Shown: in pieces, positions 2,904-17,936 of the stretch
Layout: every line of letters starts with the position of its first letter
Numbering within the stretch: position 1 is the stretch's first letter
Source of the DNA: a virus
Taxonomy: Duplodnaviria > Heunggongvirae > Uroviricota > Caudoviricetes
DNA length: 22,782 nucleotides
Direction: 5' to 3' (one strand)
IMG/VR virus record: IMGVR_UViG_2778261160_000006
Coordinates: 1 to 22,782 of that record
Made by a program: the position numbers and the translations under genes
The notes under the pieces: model-generated
The model's database searches: none
What the model was told of the DNA's origin: nothing
The model's input: only the letters and a program-made list of their open reading frames with translations

Positions 2904-3140
2904 TGTTCATTCCACGGACAAAAACAGAGAAAGGAAACGACAGAGGCCAAAAAGCTCGCTTTCAGCACCTGTCGTTTCCTTTCTTTTCAGAGGGTATTTT
3001 AAATAAAAACATTAAGTTATGACGAAGAAGAACGGAAACGCCTTAAACCGGAAAATTTTCATAAATAGCGAAAACCCGCGAGGTCGCCGCCCCGTAACCT
3101 GTCGGATCGCCGGAAAGGACCCGCAAAATGATAATAATTA
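2904..3140 (-). other. cos: cos region: cosN cohesive-end sequence (complement of GGGCGGCGACCT at 3081-3092), with cosB between cosN and the Nu1 start and cosQ-side sequence at 3093-3140
   Basis: The reverse complement of 3061-3140 reads ...CATTTTGCGGGTCCTTTCCGGCGATCCGACAGGTTACGGGGCGGCGACCTCGCGGGTTTTCGCTATTTAT, which I recognise as the lambda right-end/left-end join. Confidence 0.85.
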
Positions 3141-3291
3141 TCATCTACATGTCACAACGTGCATCTACGCCATCAAACCACGTCAAATAATCAATTATGA
3201 CGCAGGTATCGTATTAATTGATCTGCATCAACTTAACGTAAAAACAACTTCAGACAATACAAATCAGCGACACTGAATACGGGGCAACCTC

Positions 3292-3486
3292 ATGTCAACG
3301 AAGAACAGAACCCGCAGAACAACAACCCGCAACATCCGCTTTCCTAACCAAATGATTGAACAAATTAACATCGCTCTTGAGCAAAAAGGGTCTGGGAATT
3401 TCTCAGCCTGGGTCATTGAAGCCTGCCGTCGGAGACTAACGTCAGAAAAGAGAGCATATACATCAATCCAAAGTGATGATGGATGA
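3292..3486 (+). CDS. Hypothetical small basic protein, 64 aa; possibly a ribbon-helix-helix or YlcI-like protein
   Basis: ORF between cos and bor with an Arg/Thr-rich N-terminus (MSTKNRTRRTTTRNIRFPNQMIEQINIALEQKG...). The family assignment is a guess from its position in DLP12-like prophages. Confidence 0.3.
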   Translation: MSTKNRTRRTTTRNIRFPNQMIEQINIALEQKGSGNFSAWVIEACRRRLTSEKRAYTSIQSDDG

Positions 3487-3846
3487 ACATCCCGGTTTCT
3501 TCCACCATCGCACCGGAAAAGCGACTATGAGGGTAACCCTGCGTCTGTCAGCACAGTAAAACCCGGTGTGCATCATTTTTGATTATTCCCGCACACTCAC
3601 GCAGAAGGAATTCCCCGTCGGGCTACGGTCATGGTTAATGCGGGAATACGGCGACGATACAGCGCAGCTAAAAGGGTAATGGACAGATAGAGCGGTTTAT
3701 TTCATTCCACAGGATTCTGAGTGCCCCCCCTCCTCCAATAGGCTGAGCATCCACCTATATAGTTTTAATTTTCATCAATCCATTTAACTATCGTTTAATT
3801 GTTGTCACATAGGATTCTGCCGTTTTTAACAATGCAGGATAATAAG

Positions 3847-4140
3847 ATGAAAAAAATGTTGTTTTCTGCCGCTCTGGCAATGCTTATTACAGGATGTGCT
3901 CAACAGACGTTTACTGTTGGAAACAAACCGACAGCAGTAACACCAAAGGAAACCATCACCCATCACTTCTTCGTTTCGGGAATTGGACAGGAGAAAACTG
4001 TTGATGCAGCCAAAATTTGTGGCGGCGCAGAAAATGTTGTTAAAACAGAAACCCAGCAAACATTCGTAAATGGATTGCTCGGTTTTATTACTTTAGGCAT
4101 TTATACTCCGCTGGAAGCGCGTGTGTATTGCTCACAATAA
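3847..4140 (+). CDS. bor: Bor outer-membrane lipoprotein (serum resistance, Iss family), 97 aa
   Basis: From the internal Met, MKKMLFSAALAMLITGCAQQTFTV...YTPLEARVYCSQ matches lambda Bor, including the lipobox LITGC. It is oriented opposite to the lysis genes as in lambda. Confidence 0.9.
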   Translation: MKKMLFSAALAMLITGCAQQTFTVGNKPTAVTPKETITHHFFVSGIGQEKTVDAAKICGGAENVVKTETQQTFVNGLLGFITLGIYTPLEARVYCSQ

Positions 4141-4171
4141 TTGCATGAGTTGCCCATCGATATGGGCAGCT

Positions 4172-4633
4172 CTATCTGCACTGCTCATTAATATACTTCT
4201 GGGTTCCTTCCAGTTGTTTTTGCATAGTGATCAGCCTCTCTCTGAGGGTGAAATAATCCTGTTCAGCGGTGTCTGCCAGTCGGGGGGAGGCTGCATTATC
4301 CACGCCGGAGGCGGTGGTGGCTTCACGCACTGACTGACAGACTGCTTTGATGTGCAACCGACGACGACCAGCGGCAACATCATCACGCAGAGCATCATTT
4401 TCAGCTTTCGCATCAGCTAACTCCTTCGTGTATTTTGCATCGAGCGCAGCAACATCACGCTGACGCATCTGCATGTCAGTAATTGCCGCGTTCGCCAGCT
4501 TCAGTTCTTTGGCATTTTTGTCGCGCTGGGCTTTATAGGTAATGGCGTTATCACGGTAATGATTAACAGCCCATGACAGGCAGACGATGATGCAGATAAC
4601 CAGAGCGGAGATAATCGCGGTTACTCTGTTCAT
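4172..4633 (-). CDS. Rz: Spanin inner-membrane subunit Rz, 153 aa
   Basis: From [36 protein letters not shown]... the translation is near-identical to lambda Rz. Its start overlaps the endolysin stop. Confidence 0.9.
4231..4413 (-). CDS. Rz1: Spanin outer-membrane lipoprotein Rz1, embedded in the +1 frame of Rz, 60 aa
   Basis: [47 protein letters not shown]... matches lambda Rz1, including the lipobox and proline-rich tract, and lies wholly inside Rz. Confidence 0.85.
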
Positions 4634-8628: not shown

Positions 8629-9083
8629 TACGCCTCCTGCTTGTCACGGAGCAGCTGGAACTCGCAGCTCTGCGGAATAGTCAGGTGGCAGCCAATATTC
8701 ACCGCCCAGGCTTCAACCTTACACAGGAAGACATACATCTCTCCGGTATCAAGATCGGAGGTATGGCGTAACGACTGGATAGTGGTGATATCACCGGTTA
8801 CGACATCAACCAGGTCTTTGGTTTCATAACCGAGATATGTGTGTTTGAGAGCATCTTTTACCCAAGCTGGAGTGGCGAACGTTTTACCCCTGTTGATGAG
8901 GTATTCACTGATTTCGCTGTACCACATGTGGCTGAGTGCATTCTGGGAAAGACTGCGTTTCTCACGCCACGGTTTAAGCACCATGCGAAAGCATTTGCCC
9001 TCCTCCAGATAAGGCTGGATCTGCCGACCGATAGCGGTGAAGTTACCGCGATGTAATTTGATGCCATCTTGTGGGAGATTCAC
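8628..9083 (-). CDS. ybcN: YbcN-like nin-region protein, 151 aa, GTG start
   Basis: [55 protein letters not shown]... matches DLP12 YbcN by length and position; the start codon is GTG. Confidence 0.7.
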
Positions 9084-9181
9084 GCTTCACCTCCGCAGAG
9101 GTCAAACGCTGGATACAATATATCGCAGGTGCATTTCTGCATCTGTGGAGGGAGAAGAGAGTTTGGATTGTGTGTGCGCAT
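9080..9181 (-). CDS. YlcH-like micro-ORF, 33 aa
   Basis: Hand-translated [36 protein letters not shown] whose stop overlaps the ybcN GTG start (GTGA). Size and position match ylcH of K-12 DLP12; the sequence itself is not verified. Confidence 0.35.
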
Positions 9182-9270
9182 AAACGTCCCCGTTTAGCGC
9201 AGAAGTCACCGGAGTTGTTCAGGCTCCGATGACATGATTATGGCGAGTTGATTATCGCAAATCAAAGGTT

Positions 9271-9627
9271 TTAATTGTGCTTTATTCCTTCAAGCGTTGC
9301 CTTCATACCAACCAAAGAAATGTTTAGCTCTCCAACTTTCTCAGGGCTATATAATTCAGAATGAAGCCAATATTCTGATTTATCTAAACATCTTTTAGCC
9401 AGCTCTCGATCAAAGTCTACGACTTGGGAAGACGCTTCATACCAAAGCCTATAAAGTTTTTCTTCTTCGTTTGGGTTATTAGGCTCACCACGTTTTAATT
9501 TTTCAGTATATAAAATTGTTGAACAAATCGCAGGAGTTAATCCAGTGATTGCCCTCTGCCGCAGATCGGATTTGTTTGTTATCCACCCCAACAGACGATC
9601 TCCCATCCATGTGATAATTGTATCCAT
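9271..9627 (-). CDS. Hypothetical protein, 118 aa, AT-rich cargo gene of unknown function
   Basis: Clean ORF MDTIITWMGDRLLGWITNKSDLRQRAITGL... with low GC relative to the phage backbone; I recognise no family. It occupies the slot where K-12 DLP12 carries ybcL/ybcM. Confidence 0.5.
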   Translation of the reverse strand: MDTIITWMGDRLLGWITNKSDLRQRAITGLTPAICSTILYTEKLKRGEPNNPNEEEKLYRLWYEASSQVVDFDRELAKRCLDKSEYWLHSELYSPEKVGELNISLVGMKATLEGIKHN

Positions 9628-10088: not shown

Positions 10089-10412
10089 CTACTGTAATCG
10101 ATCCGAACGTAAATGCGGCAAAACTCGACTCCACTTATCATCCTGCCACGGCCGGAATTTTACATGTGCCGTTTCTCTGGCAAGGATTGCCTGTGCCTTA
10201 TTGAGTATCTGGGGATATTCTTGCTCGATAGAAGTGAAGCGACCAGCTTCACGATGCTCCGCAACCTGAAGAAGAGGAGTAACGTTCTGGTAGGTAATTA
10301 ACATCACATTCCCTGCTCGCCATAACCAGGCGAGTGTGCAAAGTTCGTTATCAGTGAATTGTTTTGTGATTGGGGATTGTTGAACTGCTAGAACGAGAAC
10401 GCCAGCATCCAT
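10089..10412 (-). CDS. Hypothetical protein, 107 aa, unknown function
   Basis: ORF MDAGVLVLAVQQSPITKQFTDNELCTLAWLWRAGNVMLITYQNV... immediately downstream of the serine recombinase gene; I recognise no family. Confidence 0.45.
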   Translation of the reverse strand: MDAGVLVLAVQQSPITKQFTDNELCTLAWLWRAGNVMLITYQNVTPLLQVAEHREAGRFTSIEQEYPQILNKAQAILARETAHVKFRPWQDDKWSRVLPHLRSDRLQ

Positions 10413-13008: not shown

Positions 13009-13706
13009 ACACTTGCTCCTTTCAGCCCAAACTTAGCTTTGATTTCTGCGATCTTCGCCAAAGCCTGTGCACGATTTAGAGGTCTACCGCCCATGACAGG
13101 AAGTTGTTTTACTGGTTCAGGTATAGCCTCACCACGGTTAATTCGCGCGATCATACAGGACAGTTCATCGGCAGCCTTGCGCCGTAATTCCGCGTCAGTC
13201 AGCGCATTGGCTCGCATGTTCTGGTACAGGTTGGTAACCAGCCAGTAGTGCGCGTTTGATTTCCACGGATAAGACTCTGCATCCGGATACAGCCCGCGCT
13301 TCCGGCAATACTCGTAAACCATATCAACCAGCTCGCTGGCGTTTGGCAGCCCGGCGGTAACGGATGCTTCTTCCCGGCACCAGGCGACAAACTGCCCGGG
13401 TGATGGCAGGAATGGTCGATTCTGCCGACGGGCTACGCGCATTCCTGCGTTAACCTGTTCCATTGTGGTGATCCCGTTTTCCCGGAAAGCCAGAACCCAC
13501 TGGCGGCGGATTTCGTTCAGTTCATTCTGGTCACGGTTAGCCAGGCTCGCCGGGAAAGTTGCCAGTAACTGCCTGAACACACCGTTGATGATCTGCGCTA
13601 CCTGCTGTACCTGTGGCTTTTCGTCGTACTGTTCCGGCATGTTGTTGGCGATCCGACGCATCTGCTCACAGTCAAAGTTAACCATTTGTGCGGCGATGTT
13701 TTTCAT
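13005..13706 (-). CDS. P: Replication protein P (DnaB helicase loader), 233 aa
   Basis: MKNIAAQMVNFDCEQMRRIANNMPEQYDEKPQVQQVAQIINGVF... is near-identical to lambda P over its full length. Confidence 0.93.
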   Translation of the reverse strand: MKNIAAQMVNFDCEQMRRIANNMPEQYDEKPQVQQVAQIINGVFRQLLATFPASLANRDQNELNEIRRQWVLAFRENGITTMEQVNAGMRVARRQNRPFLPSPGQFVAWCREEASVTAGLPNASELVDMVYEYCRKRGLYPDAESYPWKSNAHYWLVTNLYQNMRANALTDAELRRKAADELSCMIARINRGEAIPEPVKQLPVMGGRPLNRAQALAKIAEIKAKFGLKGASV

Positions 13707-14632
13707 AAATCCACCCCATAAATCCAGTCAGTGTTTGTCAGGTCCAGTTTTGATTTTCCGGCTGTCACTCCAGCCTGTTGCTTGTTACGGTTGATTTCGA
13801 GTTGGGTCCACTTGTCACGGAGTTTGGCCGGACTTAGCACGTTACCGGACCAGAAGTTGTCCTGGCATGCCCAGCGGAACAGCACGCACATGTCGCGGTG
13901 GTTACGTCCGTCACGTTCACGCATCAGGCGGATATCGTTAGCCCACCCTGCAAAATTCGGTTTTCTGGCTGATGGCGCGATGGTCTTCACCATGTCAAAC
14001 ATCCACTCTGCGGCGGTCAGGTCTTCTGCTGTCCCCCACTTGCTGCCGCTCTGAATCGCAGCATCCGGTTTCACCACAGGAAGGTCGTTTTCTGGCTGGT
14101 CAGAGTATTCGCCAGAATTCTCGGACGAATAAGGTTTTATATTGTCTTTTGTTAGTTTGTCTTTTGTGTTTACCTGATTCGGGTAAGTGCCTTTACCTGA
14201 TTTGGGTAAACTTTTCTTACCTGATTCAGGTAAATTTACCTCTTTCAGGTAAACTTTATTTTTCTTACCTGATTCGGGTAATGTTGACCATTCACTGACC
14301 ACATTATTAATGCCGATATTCCGCCCGCTCTGAATAAAAATCCCACGCTTTACCAGAACACTTTTTGCAGCAGAACACTTGTGCGGCAATATCCCGGTCA
14401 ACTCGGAAAGTTGCTCGTTGCTCACCCAATCCAGTTTTTTATTAAAGCCATATGTTTTGCGCATGACAGCCAGGAAGACCAGAAGCTGGTGCTGTGTTAA
14501 TCCGGCCAGCATCACAGCTTCCAGCAACTCATTTGCAATGCGCGTATAACCATCATCGAGATCTGCCACGCGCGGCTCCTTTTGTGCCGCATCCGGCACT
14601 GGAAAATTGAATATCTCAGCAGTGTTTGCCAT
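13703..14632 (-). CDS. O: Replication initiator O, 309 aa from MANTAEIFNF; lambda-type C-terminal domain with a divergent N-terminal iteron-binding domain
   Basis: The C-terminal ~180 aa (YPNQVNTKDKLTKDNIKPYSSENSGEYSDQPENDL...NTDWIYGVDL) are near-identical to lambda O, while the N-terminal domain is only partly similar. The ORF-track upstream extension is probably not translated. Confidence 0.88.
   Translation of the reverse strand: MANTAEIFNFPVPDAAQKEPRVADLDDGYTRIANELLEAVMLAGLTQHQLLVFLAVMRKTYGFNKKLDWVSNEQLSELTGILPHKCSAAKSVLVKRGIFIQSGRNIGINNVVSEWSTLPESGKKNKVYLKEVNLPESGKKSLPKSGKGTYPNQVNTKDKLTKDNIKPYSSENSGEYSDQPENDLPVVKPDAAIQSGSKWGTAEDLTAAEWMFDMVKTIAPSARKPNFAGWANDIRLMRERDGRNHRDMCVLFRWACQDNFWSGNVLSPAKLRDKWTQLEINRNKQQAGVTAGKSKLDLTNTDWIYGVDL
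14121..14281. repeat. ori: Replication origin inside O: five 17-bp iterons (TTACCTGATTCGGGTAA-like, at about 14170, 14193, 14217, 14236 and 14265) plus an adjacent AT-rich region (14121-14169)
   Basis: Direct repeats with internal dyad symmetry (TTACC...GGTAA) read directly from the sequence, followed in the O reading direction by an AT-rich stretch, the same layout as ori-lambda. Confidence 0.8.
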
Positions 14633-14718
14633 AATTCCTCCCGCAATGAGTGTGTTACGATTTGCACCTGAAAGTCGGTTCTGTTCCCGCAGACCGACTT
14701 TCGCCATTTTTGAACCTG

Positions 14719-15264
14719 TCATATTGCCCCCAGCATGGTGGTGACCATCGCCATCAATGGACCAGCCAGATCCGGGTCCACTCTAAACATCGACACAATG
14801 CCTTCACTCATCTCCTTCAGTTTCTGGTGGCGTGGTGCGTTGAGAATGACAGCCTGTTTTGCCTCACTGAGTTCCTTTTCCATTTCAGCCAACCTAGCCA
14901 TAAAGCTATCCTGCTCAACCAGGTAACCGCGATATTCCAGCGGTAGTACCGCCAGAATTGCCGGGGTCAGTTCACGCACGTTATTTCGGTATTTTTCAGA
15001 ATCGAATTTGTTATCGAGGAAGCGGAACAGCTTCTGGCGTGCACGGCTGACATCATCAGGGAAATCGATGGTGCCGCCGCCCTGCTCCCGATACTCATTC
15101 ACAATGAGTGCGGCAACAACATCCTGATTATCTGCAGCCGACCAGGCGCGGACGGCATCACGGATTTTTTCGTGGCCTGGAGCTTGTTTTGTTTGAGAAC
15201 GATTTATCACCGCAGTCGGGCTAAATCCGCTAGTCTGTTGGTATGTAAGTGGTTGCATAGTCAT
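14719..15264 (-). CDS. YdaT-like protein (CII functional analogue position), 181 aa
   Basis: It sits between the cro-like gene and O. The motifs EYREQGGGTIDFP and LTPAILAVLPLEYR resemble Rac prophage YdaT as I recall it; assignment is tentative. Confidence 0.55.
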   Translation of the reverse strand: MTMQPLTYQQTSGFSPTAVINRSQTKQAPGHEKIRDAVRAWSAADNQDVVAALIVNEYREQGGGTIDFPDDVSRARQKLFRFLDNKFDSEKYRNNVRELTPAILAVLPLEYRGYLVEQDSFMARLAEMEKELSEAKQAVILNAPRHQKLKEMSEGIVSMFRVDPDLAGPLMAMVTTMLGAI

Positions 15265-15288
15265 TGCCTTATCAGTTAACGCCGCAGT

Positions 15289-15516
15289 TTAGGCGGCAGA
15301 ATTACTCGCGTTAAACAATGGTGCGAGGTCGGGACGAATATCTGCTGGTTTAATCTTTCCACCAGTGGCTGAGACAATTTTCATTACATAGCGGGCATCA
15401 ATTCCGCCACCGTGTAGCCAACGCCAAACAGTGGGTTGGGCTACACCGCATAGATCTGCCAGTCGTTTTTGACTACCTGTAATACTGATTGCGAGTTGAA
15501 TGGTTTGATTTGTCAT
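15289..15516 (-). CDS. cro: Cro-like HTH regulator (Cro/YdaS type), 75 aa from the ATG
   Basis: Small HTH protein (LADLCGVAQPTVWRWLHGG) transcribed divergently from the repressor. The ORF track starts at an upstream TTG; an ATG with an AGGAA Shine-Dalgarno sequence is 6 nt downstream. Confidence 0.7.
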   Translation of the reverse strand: MTNQTIQLAISITGSQKRLADLCGVAQPTVWRWLHGGGIDARYVMKIVSATGGKIKPADIRPDLAPLFNASNSAA

Positions 15517-15626
15517 TATCAATTCCTATTGGTATTGCAACGAATAAATAATAGCAATGCGTATTAATCATAACAATAGCAAAACGTGTTTTGACCATCA
15601 ATACGCAAGCGTATAAATTAAAACTT
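15517..15626. promoter_or_regulatory. OR-like divergent control region: repeated AATAGCAA / TTGCTATT operator-like motifs, a putative pR on the - strand (-35 TTGTTA, 17 nt, -10 TATTAT) and a putative pRM on the + strand (-35 TTGACC, 16 nt, -10 ATAAAT) ending 8 nt before the cI ATG
   Basis: Read directly from the sequence. Similar ATAGC-containing motifs recur at the OL-like site at 17400-17450, and both regulators share the recognition-helix motif GVAQPT(V/I)WR. Confidence 0.55.
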
Positions 15627-16319
15627 ATGAAAAAAGAAACTCTTGCTGATCGCTTAAACCTAGCGATGGAACAATCTGGAATGTCTCAAGGCGCTCTTGC
15701 AAAGGCGTCTGGCGTAGCTCAACCCACAATCTGGAGACTGACAAGCGGCAACGCGCGCGGCTCAACAAAAATTGTTGAAATAGCTAATGCATTGGGTGTT
15801 CGAACAGAATGGCTCTCATCAGGCATAGGCCCGATGAGAAATGACGGTCAACAATTAGGGAAGCCTACTGCCAACCATCCCAAATACTTCAAGATTGACG
15901 TTCTTGATATAGAAGTGAGTGCCGGGCCGGGAGTCATCAACCGTGAGTTTGTAGAAGTTCTACGCTCGGTTGAGTACTCGTTTGACGATGCTCGTCACAT
16001 GTTCGATGGTAGGAAGGCAGAAAATATCCGCATCATTAACGTGCGTGGTGACAGCATGTCAGGAACGATCGAACCAGGTGATCTGCTGTTCGTTGATATC
16101 ACGGTTAAATCTTTCGACGGTGATGGCATCTATGCGTTTCTGTACGACGACACCGCCCATGTAAAGCGCCTGCAAATGATGAAGGATAAGCTGCTGGTTA
16201 TCTCTGATAACAAGAGCTACTCACCGTGGGACCCGATCGAGAAAGACGAGATGAACCGGGTGTTCATCTTCGGTAAGGTTATTGGGAGCATGCCCCAGAC
16301 GTACAGGAAACATGGATAA
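15627..16319 (+). CDS. cI: CI-like prophage repressor: N-terminal XRE-type HTH plus C-terminal LexA/S24 autopeptidase domain, 230 aa from MKKETL
   Basis: HTH MSQGALAKASGVAQPTIWRL, an Ala-Gly candidate cleavage site (EVSAGPG), the Ser nucleophile in VRGDSMSGTIEPGD and the Lys in HVKRL. The ORF-track TTG start at 15591 coincides with the putative -35 element. Confidence 0.85.
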   Translation: MKKETLADRLNLAMEQSGMSQGALAKASGVAQPTIWRLTSGNARGSTKIVEIANALGVRTEWLSSGIGPMRNDGQQLGKPTANHPKYFKIDVLDIEVSAGPGVINREFVEVLRSVEYSFDDARHMFDGRKAENIRIINVRGDSMSGTIEPGDLLFVDITVKSFDGDGIYAFLYDDTAHVKRLQMMKDKLLVISDNKSYSPWDPIEKDEMNRVFIFGKVIGSMPQTYRKHG

Positions 16320-16385: not shown

Positions 16386-17249
16386 ATGGATTGTGACGCT
16401 TTACAGGATATAAAAATCTCTCTTAGGTATGACGGAAAAGATGCTTTAAATCATGAAATAGATTTGAACTGCCTAGGAGAATCCCTAAAGGGTTTTTCTA
16501 AAGTTCTCTCAACAGCAGCTTCTTTCTCTGTTACACAAAAATATAGTAAATACATTAATTATCAGGAAGTTAAGGTTTACGCACGCGAAGCAAAAGCTAA
16601 CTGCTTTACTCTTGAAGCAGTTCTTAACTTCGCCACTCAGAACCAGTTGTTCTCGGGGATCGCCGCAACTATACTTGGCGCAATACTACAATATATTTTT
16701 GCGAGAAATTCTAACAAGAAAGATGAAATGAAAGCTTTGCAGCAGTCACTTGAAAAGGCCATAGAGGCACTAGGAAACAAGGATGCTGGAACCATTGATA
16801 AGTTGATCTCTTTGATTGACCGAATGGCTGTAGAGCTTCGCCCCTCTGTAAGGCAGGCAGTATCACCTATTGGTAATACTTGCGATCAGATAAGTGTTGC
16901 AACAAATGTTGACGGCTGCCTTCTAAAAGTTAACGAGAGAGATAAAGCTGAAATTGATAGGCTTGATGATGATGAAGTTCTCGGTCTTCGTGAGTATCGT
17001 GCTTTTCTTACAGAATTTGATGCACAAAATATGACAGCTAAAATAATTTTAGATGGTGATGACTCAAAAAAGAGAATCACTGCTGAAATTAGCGATCCAG
17101 CTGCAGGAAAGAAGAATAACCCGTATATTAGAGCTCTTAGTGCATATATATCAACCAAAGGTGATCCATCTGCAGTATTCACTATAACCGCAAAGGCTAC
17201 TGTTAAAAAAGGCCAGATAAACAGGTTATTTATTGTAGATGCGAAATGA
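16386..17249 (+). CDS. Hypothetical 287-aa protein in the rexAB position (directly downstream of cI, same strand); AT-rich, with one central hydrophobic segment and a predicted coiled-coil region; candidate lysogen-expressed exclusion or defence gene
   Basis: A clean ORF with markedly lower GC than cI, sitting 66 nt after the cI stop and followed by a strong intrinsic terminator. It has a hydrophobic stretch [19 protein letters not shown] and no similarity to RexA/RexB that I can see. Confidence 0.6.
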
Positions 17250-17253
17250 TTTC

Positions 17254-17280
17254 CCCGGCCGTCGTGCCGGGTTTTCTTTT
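17254..17280 (+). terminator. Rho-independent terminator of the cI / 287-aa transcript (CCCGGC-loop-GCCGGG followed by TTTTCTTTT)
   Basis: Perfect 6-bp GC stem with a 6-nt loop and a T-tract, immediately after the 287-aa ORF stop. Confidence 0.65.
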
Positions 17281-17399
17281 GCCTCCCCTCATCACACACC
17301 GTTCAAAAAACCACCACAACCTCCCTTCAGTTATCGCTATGCGATGCAAGTCACAAAATTAATTCTTTTTGCTATCAAACAGTTAATATCAAAACACAT

Positions 17400-17455
17400 C
17401 AATCAATAGCTATAAGTATTGATAGCACCAATAGCAATAGCTATTATTACCATGT
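17400..17455 (+). promoter_or_regulatory. pL-like early-left promoter (-35 TTGATA at 17419-17424, 17-nt spacer, -10 TATTAT at 17442-17447) overlapping OL-like operator repeats (CAATAGCTAT, AATAGCAATAGCTATT)
   Basis: Near-consensus sigma-70 hexamers with ideal spacing, overlapped by the same ATAGC motif family found at OR, at the position expected for pL/OL relative to cI. Confidence 0.6.
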
Positions 17456-17645
17456 CGCAACAACACAACGATACGGCAACCACCTGATTCACCGTTGCGA
17501 TGACCGCTTAGATCCGCAGCTTGAATTTCGGCAGGCTCCGGGGAGTGCGAGGGGTGAAACGGACGCGTGAACGTCGGTGTGACCAGCTGAAATCAACTCA
17601 ACTCAACACCTCATACCTCAGTCGCTTCAACGAGGCGGCTTAGTT

Positions 17646-17936
17646 ATGACAACCGGCGGCCATCCACCGCCTGAATACGCGCAGAAGTCTCTATATGTTC
17701 AGCAGCCCAGCTTACGGGCAGGAGTTTTTATGGTTCATCAACATTACGGAACGCAGACCGTTAATCGAGGTGCGGTCATGCCAGGAATGCTGGTCAAACA
17801 CAAAGATGGTACCTGGACTGCATCAGCTAATTTACGCGGACGGCTATATCTGCATCGCGGCATCGAGCGCACTTATACCCGTGATTTGCTCGTAGAAGTT
17901 TTTCTCGACGGACGCGGTAACGGCCTGAATCACTAA
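17646..17936 (+). CDS. Hypothetical protein, up to 96 aa, first ORF of the pL operon in the kil/cIII position
   Basis: ORF with phage-backbone-like GC whose 3' end runs into the 5' region of the lambda long-Gam reading frame in a different frame. I recognise no similarity, and the start codon is uncertain. Confidence 0.35.
   Translation: MTTGGHPPPEYAQKSLYVQQPSLRAGVFMVHQHYGTQTVNRGAVMPGMLVKHKDGTWTASANLRGRLYLHRGIERTYTRDLLVEVFLDGRGNGLNH

Follow-up and report, generated by a model that had tools for sequence, protein, structure and literature searches.

We analyzed a window of 22,782 nucleotides (22.8 kb) and focused on its immunity region. In this region a cI repressor gene (15627–16319, plus strand) is divergent from a cro-like gene (15289–15516, minus strand) and from a ydaT-family gene (14719–15258, minus strand), which the gene map places between the cro-like gene and the replication initiator gene O (13703–14632, minus strand). 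An accessory gene (16386–17249, plus strand) lies between cI and the OL-like operators. The first-pass annotation had mapped the immunity elements to this region, where all of them were present. Elsewhere, the window carries int, exo, bet, gam, kil, O, P, Q, lysis and terminase genes, the accessory or insertion-type genes emrE and ybcK, and a 107-aa ORF (10089–10412) that corresponds only to the C-terminal domain of the P22 antirepressor. A scan of the whole window at Rfam gathering thresholds returned only IS009 at 160–358 and gave nothing in the immunity region. The immunity region was about 97% identical in sequenced phages annotated with cI/cro/cII and 99.9% identical in RefSeq E. coli genomes. 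The same region is carried by plaque-forming phages and is contained in complete phage genomes of 47–50 kb. PhiR68.2, which has this immunity region, has been used as an infective phage (10.1101/2025.11.03.685801), and the literature searched contained no induction data for PhiR phages or this immunity type.

The long ORF of cI (15591–16319, plus strand) encodes 242 aa from a TTG, whereas RefSeq instead starts the gene at ATG 15627, which gives 230 aa and is the likely start. Pfam matches of the 242-aa ORF were to Peptidase_S24 (E = 1.5e-18) and HTH_3 (E = 1.5e-6), with a 434-like HTH_3 domain at the N-terminus and the Peptidase_S24 domain at the C-terminus, and among PDB sequences CI matched the 434 repressor and UmuD'. 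In an alignment with E. coli LexA and three homologues, A99-G100, S143 and K180 of CI fell in invariant columns. Their LexA counterparts are Ala84-Gly85, Ser119 and Lys156; in LexA the Ala-Gly pair is the cleavage site and the Ser and Lys form the catalytic dyad, and we transferred these roles to the CI residues. The Pfam matches and the intact Ala-Gly, Ser and Lys relative to LexA bear out the earlier description of a LexA-like repressor with HTH plus S24 architecture, and they suggest that CI may undergo RecA-stimulated self-cleavage and be SOS-inducible.

The cro ORF (15289–15522, minus strand) encodes 77 aa, and the RefSeq gene (15289–15516) encodes 75 aa from ATG 15516, the likely start. 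The 77-aa product matched PF15943 (YdaS) with E = 1e-14 (54.5 bits against a cut-off of 30) and P22_Cro weakly, and it matched the solved chains 3BD1 (deposited as 'Cro protein') and 5W8Y. Its identity to Rac YdaS was 32%. It is a small single-domain HTH protein encoded by the first gene of the PR operon on the gene map, and it has the same recognition helix as CI. The shared motif GVAQPT(V/I)WR, already pointed out for the repressor and the divergent regulator, was found in both translations as GVAQPTIWR in CI and GVAQPTVWR in Cro, and the HTH regions of the two proteins are homologous (40% identity over 48 aa, E = 2e-8). In the 434 repressor, the aligned counterpart of the motif is the segment TQQSIEQL of helix 3, the recognition helix.

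The 16-bp operator family AATAGC-N5-sTATT was confined to four sites at OR and two at OL. With at most one mismatch, AATAGCNNNNNSTATT had five matches against 0.86 expected, all of them within 15550–15590 or 17405–17445. A position weight matrix (PWM) was trained on five sites, which score at least 15.4; the untrained site at 15521–15536 scored 16.1, and the best score outside the two regulatory regions of the 22.8-kb window was only 11.2. Both the mismatch scan and the PWM thus confine to the OR-like and OL-like sites the ATAGC-containing motif family that had been noticed there. At OR, the OR1-like operator (15550–15565, AATAGCAATGCGTATT) lies over the PR -10, the OR2-like operator (15575–15590, AATAGCAAAACGTGTT) lies over the PR -35 and adjoins the PRM -35, and the OR3-like operator (15600–15615, AATACGCAAGCGTATA) lies within the PRM spacer. 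A possible fourth operator (15521–15536, AATTCCTATTGGTATT), the untrained site of the PWM, overlies the cro ribosome-binding site within the PR leader. In the Huaxiibacter relative (L025) the operators are conserved and the spacers between them have diverged; the OR1-like operator is kept there though its flanking spacer diverges, and the possible fourth operator is also kept. At OL there are two operators (17405–17420 and 17430–17445), whose centres lie 25 bp apart. The PWM gave no further strong OL site, and a third operator was rejected, the best candidate (17361–17376) scoring only 8.1.

Consensus scans predicted PR (15548–15576, minus strand; TTGTTA, 17-nt spacer, TATTAT, with TG ahead of the -10), PRM (15591–15619, plus strand; TTGACC, 17-nt spacer, TAAATT) and PL (17419–17447, plus strand; TTGATA, 17-nt spacer, TATTAT, 10/12 matches), and the operators overlap all three. 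A gap of 7 nt separates the PRM -10 from the cI ATG, so the cI mRNA from the predicted PRM is probably leaderless, for which there is experimental precedent in the repressor mRNA of CP-933P (PMC8630535). Downstream of the accessory gene, a distant DNA search of 17250–17660 for a put-like or N-like function returned only same-group phages and a short P22-like stretch, with no annotated N.

The ydaT ORF (14719–15264, minus strand) encodes 181 aa, and its likely start is the RefSeq ATG at 15258, which gives 179 aa. The 181-aa protein matched PF06254 (YdaT_toxin) at 102.7 bits (cut-off 21; E = 1.5e-29) and phrog_163 (E = 4e-67), and the 179-aa protein shared 67% full-length identity with CII of phage phi80. 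Pairwise comparison with Rac YdaT gave 35% identity (E = 3e-12). In the Pfam scan at E ≤ 0.01 only PF06254 was returned; there was no match to the lambda CII family PF05269 (Phage_CII), and homology to lambda CII was rejected on this basis. The protein is thus CII-like by position and published analogy and is not a member of the lambda CII family. Its AF2 model (pLDDT 76.5; residues 30–170 mostly 80–93, with dips to 69–75) has a disordered N-terminal tail (residues 1–26), a helical HTH domain (29–113) and more helices (119–178), and, as in 8BT1 and 3C4R, a long helix comes after the HTH domain. These two YdaT structures were the only credible matches in a Foldseek search of the model against the PDB (probability 1.00; TM 0.65–0.67 normalised to the target, 117–121 aligned columns).

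The EYREQGGG motif of the first-pass annotation was located at residues 55–62, where it aligns to EEYLRQGGG of Rac YdaT. Recognition-helix residues R57 and W58 matter in Rac YdaT; in the alignment of Rac QQNIYHRW with RQKLF-RF here, the Arg is kept (R79) and the Trp is replaced by Phe. Among 30 homologues R74, Q75 and K76 were invariant and R79 was nearly invariant. The profile search of the 181-aa protein, backed by the Rac YdaT alignment and the fold matches, places it in the YdaT family; together with the missing lambda CII match, this upholds the view that the protein in the CII slot resembles YdaT and not CII. The arrangement is not an unusual one, a point absent from the first-pass annotation: phi80 itself pairs a YdaT-type CII with an S24-type CI and the Cro-like gp30. 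Published work has shown that YdaT is a tetramer binding TTGATT-N6-AATCAA, that homologues with only 30% identity cross-bind the same box, and that YdaT activates a reverse promoter feeding the repressor gene in CP-933P and Rac (PMC8630535, PMC9986795, PMC11879457).

Beyond ydaT, the long ORF of O (Phage_rep_O) extends to 14722, and phrog_277 matches it from residue 31 on. O probably starts at ATG 14632, after a conserved GGAG, and the current start call is probably wrong. The conserved Shine-Dalgarno sequence and ATG make 14632 the more likely start, and ydaT and O probably do not overlap. The ydaT–O spacer contains a candidate oop/M3-like antisense RNA (14642–14712, plus strand), identified by promoter scan and hairpin. 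Its promoter-like site (14607–14635, plus strand) reads TTGAAT, 17-nt spacer, CATAAT, and its terminator hairpin (14670–14702, plus strand), followed by a T-run, has a predicted fold of -24.6 kcal/mol (z = -3.8). The hairpin arms, read by eye, differ between the window, loci L007 and L006 and phi80, yet they stay self-complementary. In the phi80 record this position, between cII and the O-like gene, carries an annotated oop-like M3 RNA; the candidate RNA here lacks annotation.

On the other side of cI, the accessory gene (Pfam DUF7946 + DUF7947) is a homologue of phi80 gene 40A (62% identity) and is followed by a terminator-like hairpin (17254–17271). PADLOC, applied to its product, YdaT and CI, gave only weak matches, namely PDC-S42 for the accessory product (E = 1.5e-4) and RmrA/capH HTH matches, so that no defence system could be called. 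A search of the literature on DUF7946 found no papers.

A canonical YdaT-box at the cro–ydaT junction was rejected, none being found in 14700–15500 at up to 2 mismatches. A degenerate, conserved box emerged only on comparing 23 related loci. This box (15193–15210; TTGAGAACGATTTATCAC on the plus strand, ydaT codons 17–22) is the candidate activator site of a PRE-like promoter. It is position-conserved in 24/24 phi80-type loci, where its TGAT and TCA nucleotides are invariant while the encoded residues vary. The candidate -10 (TAGTCT, 15231–15236, plus strand) lies 20 nt from the box, antisense to ydaT codons 8–10, and no other TAnnnT on either strand of the gene is shared by all 24 sequences; transcription is predicted to start near 15243. 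The 20-nt spacing from box to -10 was also found in Rac of K-12 and in Klebsiella phage ST405-OXA48phi1.2, and it is 21 nt in phage Tritos, which is CP-933P-like. The Klebsiella phage with the box, 20-nt and TAnnnT layout encodes a YdaT about 61% identical to that of CP-933P.

These observations point to a PRE at this specific placement (box 15193–15210, -10 15231–15236), to which we give just short of an even chance. Against it, the box in the window departs from the published consensus at four positions, TAGTCT makes a weak -10, the spacing in Tritos is one nucleotide longer, and the Rac study puts the promoter that depends on YdaT about 190 bp away from the box rather than beside it. The lack of a Shine-Dalgarno sequence before cI counts against efficient translation of a PRE transcript, and the nucleotide conservation could in principle reflect another DNA or RNA signal.

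Two further boxes in the window are closer to the published TTGATT-N6-AATCAA, against 0.12 matches expected at one-mismatch stringency. One is near-canonical (15505–15522, TTGATTTGTCATTATCAA; one mismatch) and spans the cro start codon. It is not conserved in L025, the one diverged relative with the same CI and Cro, and it was downgraded as a conserved site because it is absent there. The other is a perfect box (9248–9265) in the nin region upstream of ylcH/ybcN, where it sits on a promoter-like site (a -35/-10-like arrangement) and its conservation spans four different spacers, that in K-12 DLP12 among them. With the two best box matches at the cro start and in the nin region, the latter overlapping promoter-like elements, the YdaT-type protein might act mainly as a repressor or roadblock at these sites rather than as an activator of cI establishment. 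Rac YdaT binding in the Rac intergenic region does lower racR expression, and the Acta D paper names YdaT a repressor. We nevertheless consider this reading unlikely: besides the absence of the cro-start box in L025, the nin box also occurs in K-12 DLP12, which lost its own cII, and published reporters show the reverse promoter activated in Rac and CP-933P. Repression at these boxes would in any case be compatible with an activator role.

For activation, we tentatively propose, at somewhat below an even chance, that in phi80-type phages, this prophage among them, YdaT may activate an establishment promoter written into its own N-terminal tail codons, from a class II position at about -41.5, and that the nin box may serve YdaT proteins, even that of Rac, in control of the nin and late region. 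The recurrence of the box, 20-nt spacer and TAnnnT layout in Rac and the Klebsiella phage would then move the promoter that depends on YdaT away from the position assigned to it in the Rac study. Published work leaves the YdaT-dependent establishment promoter unmapped or places it elsewhere, and the conserved box and -10 in the ydaT coding sequence, if confirmed, would fix its architecture.

Taken together, the locus very probably serves as the immunity (lysis-lysogeny) module of an E. coli lambdoid prophage in the DLP12 family. Its organisation follows that of phage phi80, and its switch, very probably of phi80 type, would be composed of a self-cleaving CI, Cro and a YdaT-type CII analogue. 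The gene content, domains, catalytic residues, motif distribution and comparative conservation are observed here, and from them we infer how the elements bind, cleave and promote transcription. In a lysogen, CI (230 aa) would bind the 16-bp operators, probably as a dimer. At OR, the sites at 25-bp spacing would cover the PR -10 and -35; the site adjoining the PRM -35 would be placed for PRM activation, and the third site, inside PRM, could shut PRM off. At OL, the two sites would cover PL, and cI would probably be translated from a leaderless PRM transcript. On DNA damage, RecA-stimulated self-cleavage of CI at Ala99-Gly100 via the Ser143/Lys180 dyad would release PR and PL, and Cro, whose recognition helix matches that of CI, would be expected to occupy the CI operators as well and keep PRM repressed. 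Following infection, the YdaT-family protein, an expected tetrameric HTH activator, would take the CII role, and its target would be a promoter reading backwards through cro into cI. In the candidate PRE, the YdaT-box would be centred at about -41.5 with the weak -10 downstream, both embedded in codons of YdaT's own disordered N-terminal tail.

The S24 domain of CI would be irrelevant if induction ran via an antirepressor, or if the locus were a cryptic remnant without induction. The K-12 relative DLP12 is defective, emrE and ybcK lie in the window, and the ORF at 10089–10412 resembles an antirepressor; however, that ORF is no more than a fragment, CI keeps an intact Ala-Gly site and Ser/Lys dyad in invariant alignment columns, the same immunity region occurs in the complete 47–50 kb phage genomes, and the window has the int-to-terminase genes listed above, which makes either possibility improbable. 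It is highly improbable that YdaS and YdaT form a toxin–antitoxin pair, a reading suggested by the Pfam names 'Bacterial toxin YdaS/YdaT' and by the toxicity of overexpressed Rac YdaS and YdaT reported in PMC5700377 and rejected on genomic context and literature, since the two genes take precisely the positions of cro and cII, with a CI-type repressor on one side and the O/P genes on the other, both proteins are HTH DNA binders, the YdaT-type protein is the cII of the viable phage phi80, and direct tests found regulator behaviour and no toxin–antitoxin behaviour (PMC8630535, PMC5917428).

The phi80-type switch at this locus is real but ordinary, because its layout is the same as that of classical phage phi80, and immunity regions of this kind are already known. 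They have been in sequence records since the phi80 early-region record X13065, and several phage genomes annotate the region as cI/cro/cII. YdaS and YdaT were characterised genetically and structurally between 2017 and 2025, and their standing as Cro and CII analogues has been argued and demonstrated (PMC5917428, PMC8630535, PMC9986795, PMC11879457). The finding as stated holds nothing new, and its practical use is annotation: the RefSeq names 'toxin YdaT domain-containing protein' and 'helix-turn-helix domain-containing protein' mask a CII analogue and a Cro.

Compared with phi80 (X13065, JX871397), the gene order and orientation are the same (40A – cI – OR – gene 30/cro – cII – M3 RNA – genes 15/14), CI shares the HTH plus S24 build, and the same box and -10 sequence occur in the 5' end of cII. 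The phi80 record lists three CI operators each at OR and OL, pR, pRM, pL, cI, gp30, cII, M3 RNA and genes 15/14, whereas the operators here are 16 bp at 25-bp spacing, and a fourth OR site may lie over the cro ribosome-binding site. Identity to the phi80 proteins is only 23% for CI and only 34%, across a short stretch, for Cro, so immunity specificity would differ. In phi80, PL is followed by N and nutL; here the region beyond PL shows no evident N-like gene, so early antitermination would differ from that of both lambda and phi80.

In the RacR-YdaS-YdaT system of Rac (E. coli K-12), YdaT (35% identical) and YdaS (32%) both occupy the cII and cro slots, a YdaT-box lies 20 nt from an antisense TATGAT, and YdaT activates repressor expression. 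In contrast, RacR is a 158-aa repressor, Rac YdaT has 140 aa without the 26-residue N-terminal tail and the extra C-terminal helices, and the Rac box overlaps the ydaT start codon instead of lying inside the coding sequence. The PaaR2-YdaS-YdaT system of CP-933P (E. coli O157:H7; structure 8BT1) shares the YdaT fold (probability 1.00; target-normalised TM 0.65–0.67), a leaderless repressor mRNA from PRM, a bistable CI/Cro-like switch and YdaT activation of a PRE-like promoter. Its YdaT, however, is only about 28% identical, its box lies at the end of ydaS, and its repressor PaaR2 is fused into a toxin-antitoxin operon; the terms 'S24' and 'LexA' are absent from PMC8630535. Lambda follows the same logic, with divergent PRM/PR and three operators, OL/PL, self-cleavage of CI, leaderless cI, an activator of CII type whose site overlaps the 5' end of its own gene, the oop antisense RNA and an accessory-gene slot downstream of cI (rexAB in lambda). 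Lambda CII has no sequence similarity to the YdaT-family protein, differing in both family and DNA site (an inverted repeat here, not a direct repeat), and, unlike in lambda, Cro here is homologous to the HTH domain of CI.

The window represents a lambdoid E. coli prophage of the DLP12 family, and strain A8 carries a near-identical copy running from the terminase genes through intD, which adjoins tRNA-Arg. Its immunity region holds ydaT (14719-15258, minus strand), a cro-like gene (15289-15516, minus strand) and cI (15627-16319, plus strand), with O and P (Phage_rep_O and Phage_lambda_P domains) to the left and a 287-aa DUF7946/DUF7947 gene (16386-17249) to the right of cI. A terminator-like hairpin (17254-17271) lies just past this last gene, followed by an operator/promoter cluster and then kil, gam, bet and exo. 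The left end of the window, where Rfam IS009 matched at 160-358 on the minus strand (227.9 bits, E=3e-56), lies near the terminase genes when positions are offset from the strain A8 annotation. In place of the DLP12 ybcL/ybcM genes, we found a 118-aa ORF with no Pfam match (9271-9627) and a 107-aa ORF in which the P22 antirepressor is represented by its C-terminal domain alone (10089-10412; PF10548, 1e-15), in a segment about 600 bp shorter than its strain A8 counterpart.

The first-pass annotation had described the 181-aa protein in the CII position as YdaT-like, and the profile search bore this out, with matches to PF06254 YdaT_toxin (E=1.5e-29, 102.7 bits against a cut-off of 21) and to PHROG 163 'CII-like transcriptional activator' (E=4e-67). 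The protein showed 35% identity over 96 aa to Rac K-12 YdaT (E=3e-12), and the motif singled out earlier as a YdaT likeness, EYREQGGG, aligned to EEYLRQGGG of that protein. An AlphaFold2 model built with 30 homologues as input (mean pLDDT 76.5) showed residues 1-26 to be disordered. The only credible PDB matches of the model were the YdaT structures 3C4R and 8BT1, deposited as 'uncharacterized protein encoded by cryptic prophage' and 'YdaT transcription regulator (CII functional analog)' (probability 1.00, TM 0.65-0.67 normalised to target, 27-28% identity). YdaT forms tetramers, carries a POU-like HTH domain and recognises TTGATT-N6-AATCAA (PMC9986795). In Rac and CP-933P it turns on a reverse promoter feeding the repressor gene, and homologues sharing only 30% identity cross-bind each other's box (PMC11879457). 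YdaS and YdaT have already been treated as Cro and CII analogues (PMC5917428, a letter by Jobling; PMC8630535), and CP-933P YdaT has been stated to be homologous to phi80 CII (PMC8630535).

We compared ydaT 5' ends across 23 sequences and added phi80 for a codon alignment of 24 (573 columns). Codons 17-22 read xTGAT(A/T)-N8-TCA in all of them, in register with the published YdaT-box, and the box was kept though the encoded residues vary (e.g. MINRxQ vs MIYQNR). Every sequence also carried TAnnnT antisense to codons 8-10, 20 nt from the box; on either strand of the whole alignment, this was the one place where TAnnnT occurred in 24/24 sequences. Only six third-codon positions in the gene were invariant (Met1, codon 17 xTG, Trp39, nt 513, nt 27 and nt 63), and the codons at nt 27 and nt 63 specify five or six different amino acids. 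The codons of both elements encode the disordered tail of the protein. The natural reading of this comparative pattern is that box and TAnnnT would together form a plus-strand promoter, an analogue of lambda PRE, because its transcript would cross cro antisense and enter cI. The YdaT-box would lie at 15193-15210 and the -10 (TAGTCT) at 15231-15236, with no usable -35; transcription would start near 15243, which would put the box centre near -41.5, a class II activator position. In lambda PRE, the CII site is likewise located among the opening codons of cII. A spacing of 20 nt also separates the box from TATGAT in Rac K-12 and from TAGCAT in Klebsiella phage ST405-OXA48phi1.2, and the box of the CP-933P-like phage Tritos lies 21 nt from TAGTTT. 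In the literature, PRE933P was predicted, not mapped (PMC8630535), and the responsive promoter of Rac was placed about 190 bp from the box (PMC11879457). It is possible that YdaT acts mainly as a repressor, a role compatible with that of an activator.

Two YdaT-boxes with at most one mismatch were present in the window against 0.12 expected, a number reached in 0/100 shuffles. The near-canonical one at 15505-15522 spans the cro start codon; we give it little weight because it is absent from the Huaxiibacter relative. The other, TTGATTATCGCAAATCAA, is a perfect box at 9248-9265 in the nin region, at the edge of a conserved block (9080-9270) and upstream of a ylcH-like 33-aa ORF and ybcN. Its minus strand reads TTGATT-N6-AATCAA-N5-CATAAT, an arrangement resembling -35 and -10 elements separated by 17 bp, and is followed by a 10-bp hairpin. 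Perfect half-sites with four different spacers occur across the window, strain A8 (position 8930 of its locus) and K-12 DLP12 (position 285), which have one common spacer, an Escherichia sp. locus (7717) and phage Tritos, where the context differs and the box lies over the ydaT start; phi80 (6048) has TTGATA-N6-TATCAA past its replication genes. The nin-region box may be a YdaT-family target, including for cross-talk from Rac YdaT in K-12.

The HTH plus S24 architecture proposed for the repressor was recovered as HTH_3 and Peptidase_S24 domains; in PDB sequence matches, the N-terminal domain aligned to 434 repressor and the C-terminal domain to UmuD'. Ala99-Gly100, Ser143 and Lys180 were invariant columns in an alignment including E. 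coli LexA, and by LexA numbering they correspond to its scissile bond and catalytic dyad. Prophage induction via an antirepressor is unlikely, as these cleavage residues are intact and the sole antirepressor-like ORF is a fragment. The Cro-like regulator matched PF15943 YdaS (1e-14) and resembled a solved chain deposited under the name 'Cro protein' (3BD1). Reading YdaS/YdaT as a toxin-antitoxin pair is contradicted by genomic context and experiment. Across the HTH region, CI and Cro are homologous (E=2e-8, with 40% identity over 48 aa), and the recognition-helix motif attributed to both, GVAQPT(I/V)WR, was indeed common to them and lined up with the 434 repressor segment that forms helix 3.

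An operator motif family common to OR-like and OL-like sites had also been proposed. With at most one mismatch, AATAGCNNNNNSTATT gave five matches against 0.86 expected, all within 15550-15590 or 17405-17445. A symmetric PWM trained on five sites recovered them at scores of at least 15.4; the best score elsewhere in the 22.8-kb window, both regulatory regions excluded, was 11.2. The OR centres (15557.5, 15582.5 and 15607.5) are spaced by 25 bp, as are those of OL (17412.5 and 17437.5). A consensus promoter scan predicted PR (15576 to 15548, minus strand; TTGTTA, 17 nt, TATTAT), PRM (15591 to 15619, plus strand; TTGACC, 17 nt, TAAATT) and PL (17419 to 17447, plus strand; TTGATA, 17 nt, TATTAT). 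Given this predicted placement, the first OR site would lie over the PR -10, the second over the PR -35, abutting the PRM -35, and the third inside PRM; lambda CI activates PRM from a position abutting the PRM -35. The cI mRNA is likely leaderless, because the ATG lies 7 nt past the end of the PRM -10 and no Shine-Dalgarno sequence precedes it. Lambda cI mRNA is likewise leaderless. For the CP-933P repressor mRNA, the same was found by 5'RACE (PMC8630535). A fourth operator-like site, AATTCCTATTGGTATT (15521-15536), was not in the training set and scored 16.1; it lies past the predicted PR start, covers the cro ribosome-binding site and is 29 bp from the OR1-like site. The four 16-mers are all retained in the Huaxiibacter chinensis prophage, with a single central substitution in each, and the sequence between them has diverged, a pattern expected of real operators.

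Between ydaT and O, a conserved GGAG and ATG set the O start at 14632, so the 'overlap' of ydaT and O is probably an artefact of annotation. The resulting 86-bp spacer (within 14607-14718) contains a candidate plus-strand oop/M3-like antisense RNA, with a promoter-like site (14607-14635) and a hairpin (14670-14702; dG -24.6 kcal/mol, z -3.8) followed by a T-run. Judged by eye, the hairpin arms vary among the window, phi80 and the Escherichia sp. locus yet remain self-complementary; the phi80 record annotates M3 RNA at the matching position. The 287-aa DUF7946 plus DUF7947 protein is encoded between cI and OL, in the accessory slot that rexAB fills in lambda. It gave a weak PADLOC match to PDC-S42 (E=1.5e-4), and a literature search on DUF7946 found no paper. 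The slot behaves like a swap site, possibly for defence genes, because sister phages with the same immunity carry other cargo annotated here (HipA/HipD, GevT/GevA and other hypotheticals). From PL to kil (17448-17645) the window has no N-like gene or annotated nut site, unlike lambda and phi80; phages 4A7 and PhiR68_2 show the same gap. A 40-aa TTG ORF with an arginine-rich stretch (KRTRERR) at 17521-17643 is too short to call.

The cII product of phi80 was 66.7% identical to the window's 179-aa protein (start 15258) over its full length, and those of mEp237, HK639 and HK225 were 52-67% identical. The phi80 record has the matching layout: 40A (62% identical to the 287-aa protein), cI, three OR operators, gene 30 (Cro-like), cII, M3 RNA and genes 15/14. 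Phi80 CI has the HTH plus S24 domains with GDSM and a Lys visible, but the specificity pair differs (CI 23% identical, Cro 34% over 44 aa), and its three annotated OR operators include no counterpart of the 15521-15536 site. In 23 related loci of other Enterobacteriaceae, the YdaT orthologue accompanied an S24-type repressor in at least six and short repressors of about 130 aa in others; YdaT therefore moves as a module. In the Huaxiibacter prophage (positions 2927-4546 of its locus), CI and Cro were 82-84% identical to the window's and YdaT only 50%, which places a mosaic recombination joint between cro and ydaT. This joint confirms independent exchange of the CII-type gene and the CI/Cro pair.

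The first-pass description and interpretation of the region were correct, and the profile search named there as a possible refutation came out for them. Only three points appear mildly new, by comparative inference: the PRE-like element embedded in ydaT, the oop/M3-like RNA together with the revised start of O, and the conserved nin-region box. Phages Perceval, 4A7, Lambda_4C10, D2, 1W, 3W and PhiR68_2 carry the same immunity region (96-97.5% identical across the 67-68% of the query that is shared), several with genes labelled cI, Cro and cII. Among the matches listed, RefSeq E. coli chromosomes contain the full 2.9 kb at an identity of at least 99.7% (maximum 99.9%), and 39 genomes cover at least 80% of it. 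The combination of repressor, Cro and YdaT is thus not unusual, as public phage genomes already contain it in annotated form, and the region belongs to a known type: the phi80-like immunity module, here with a different specificity.
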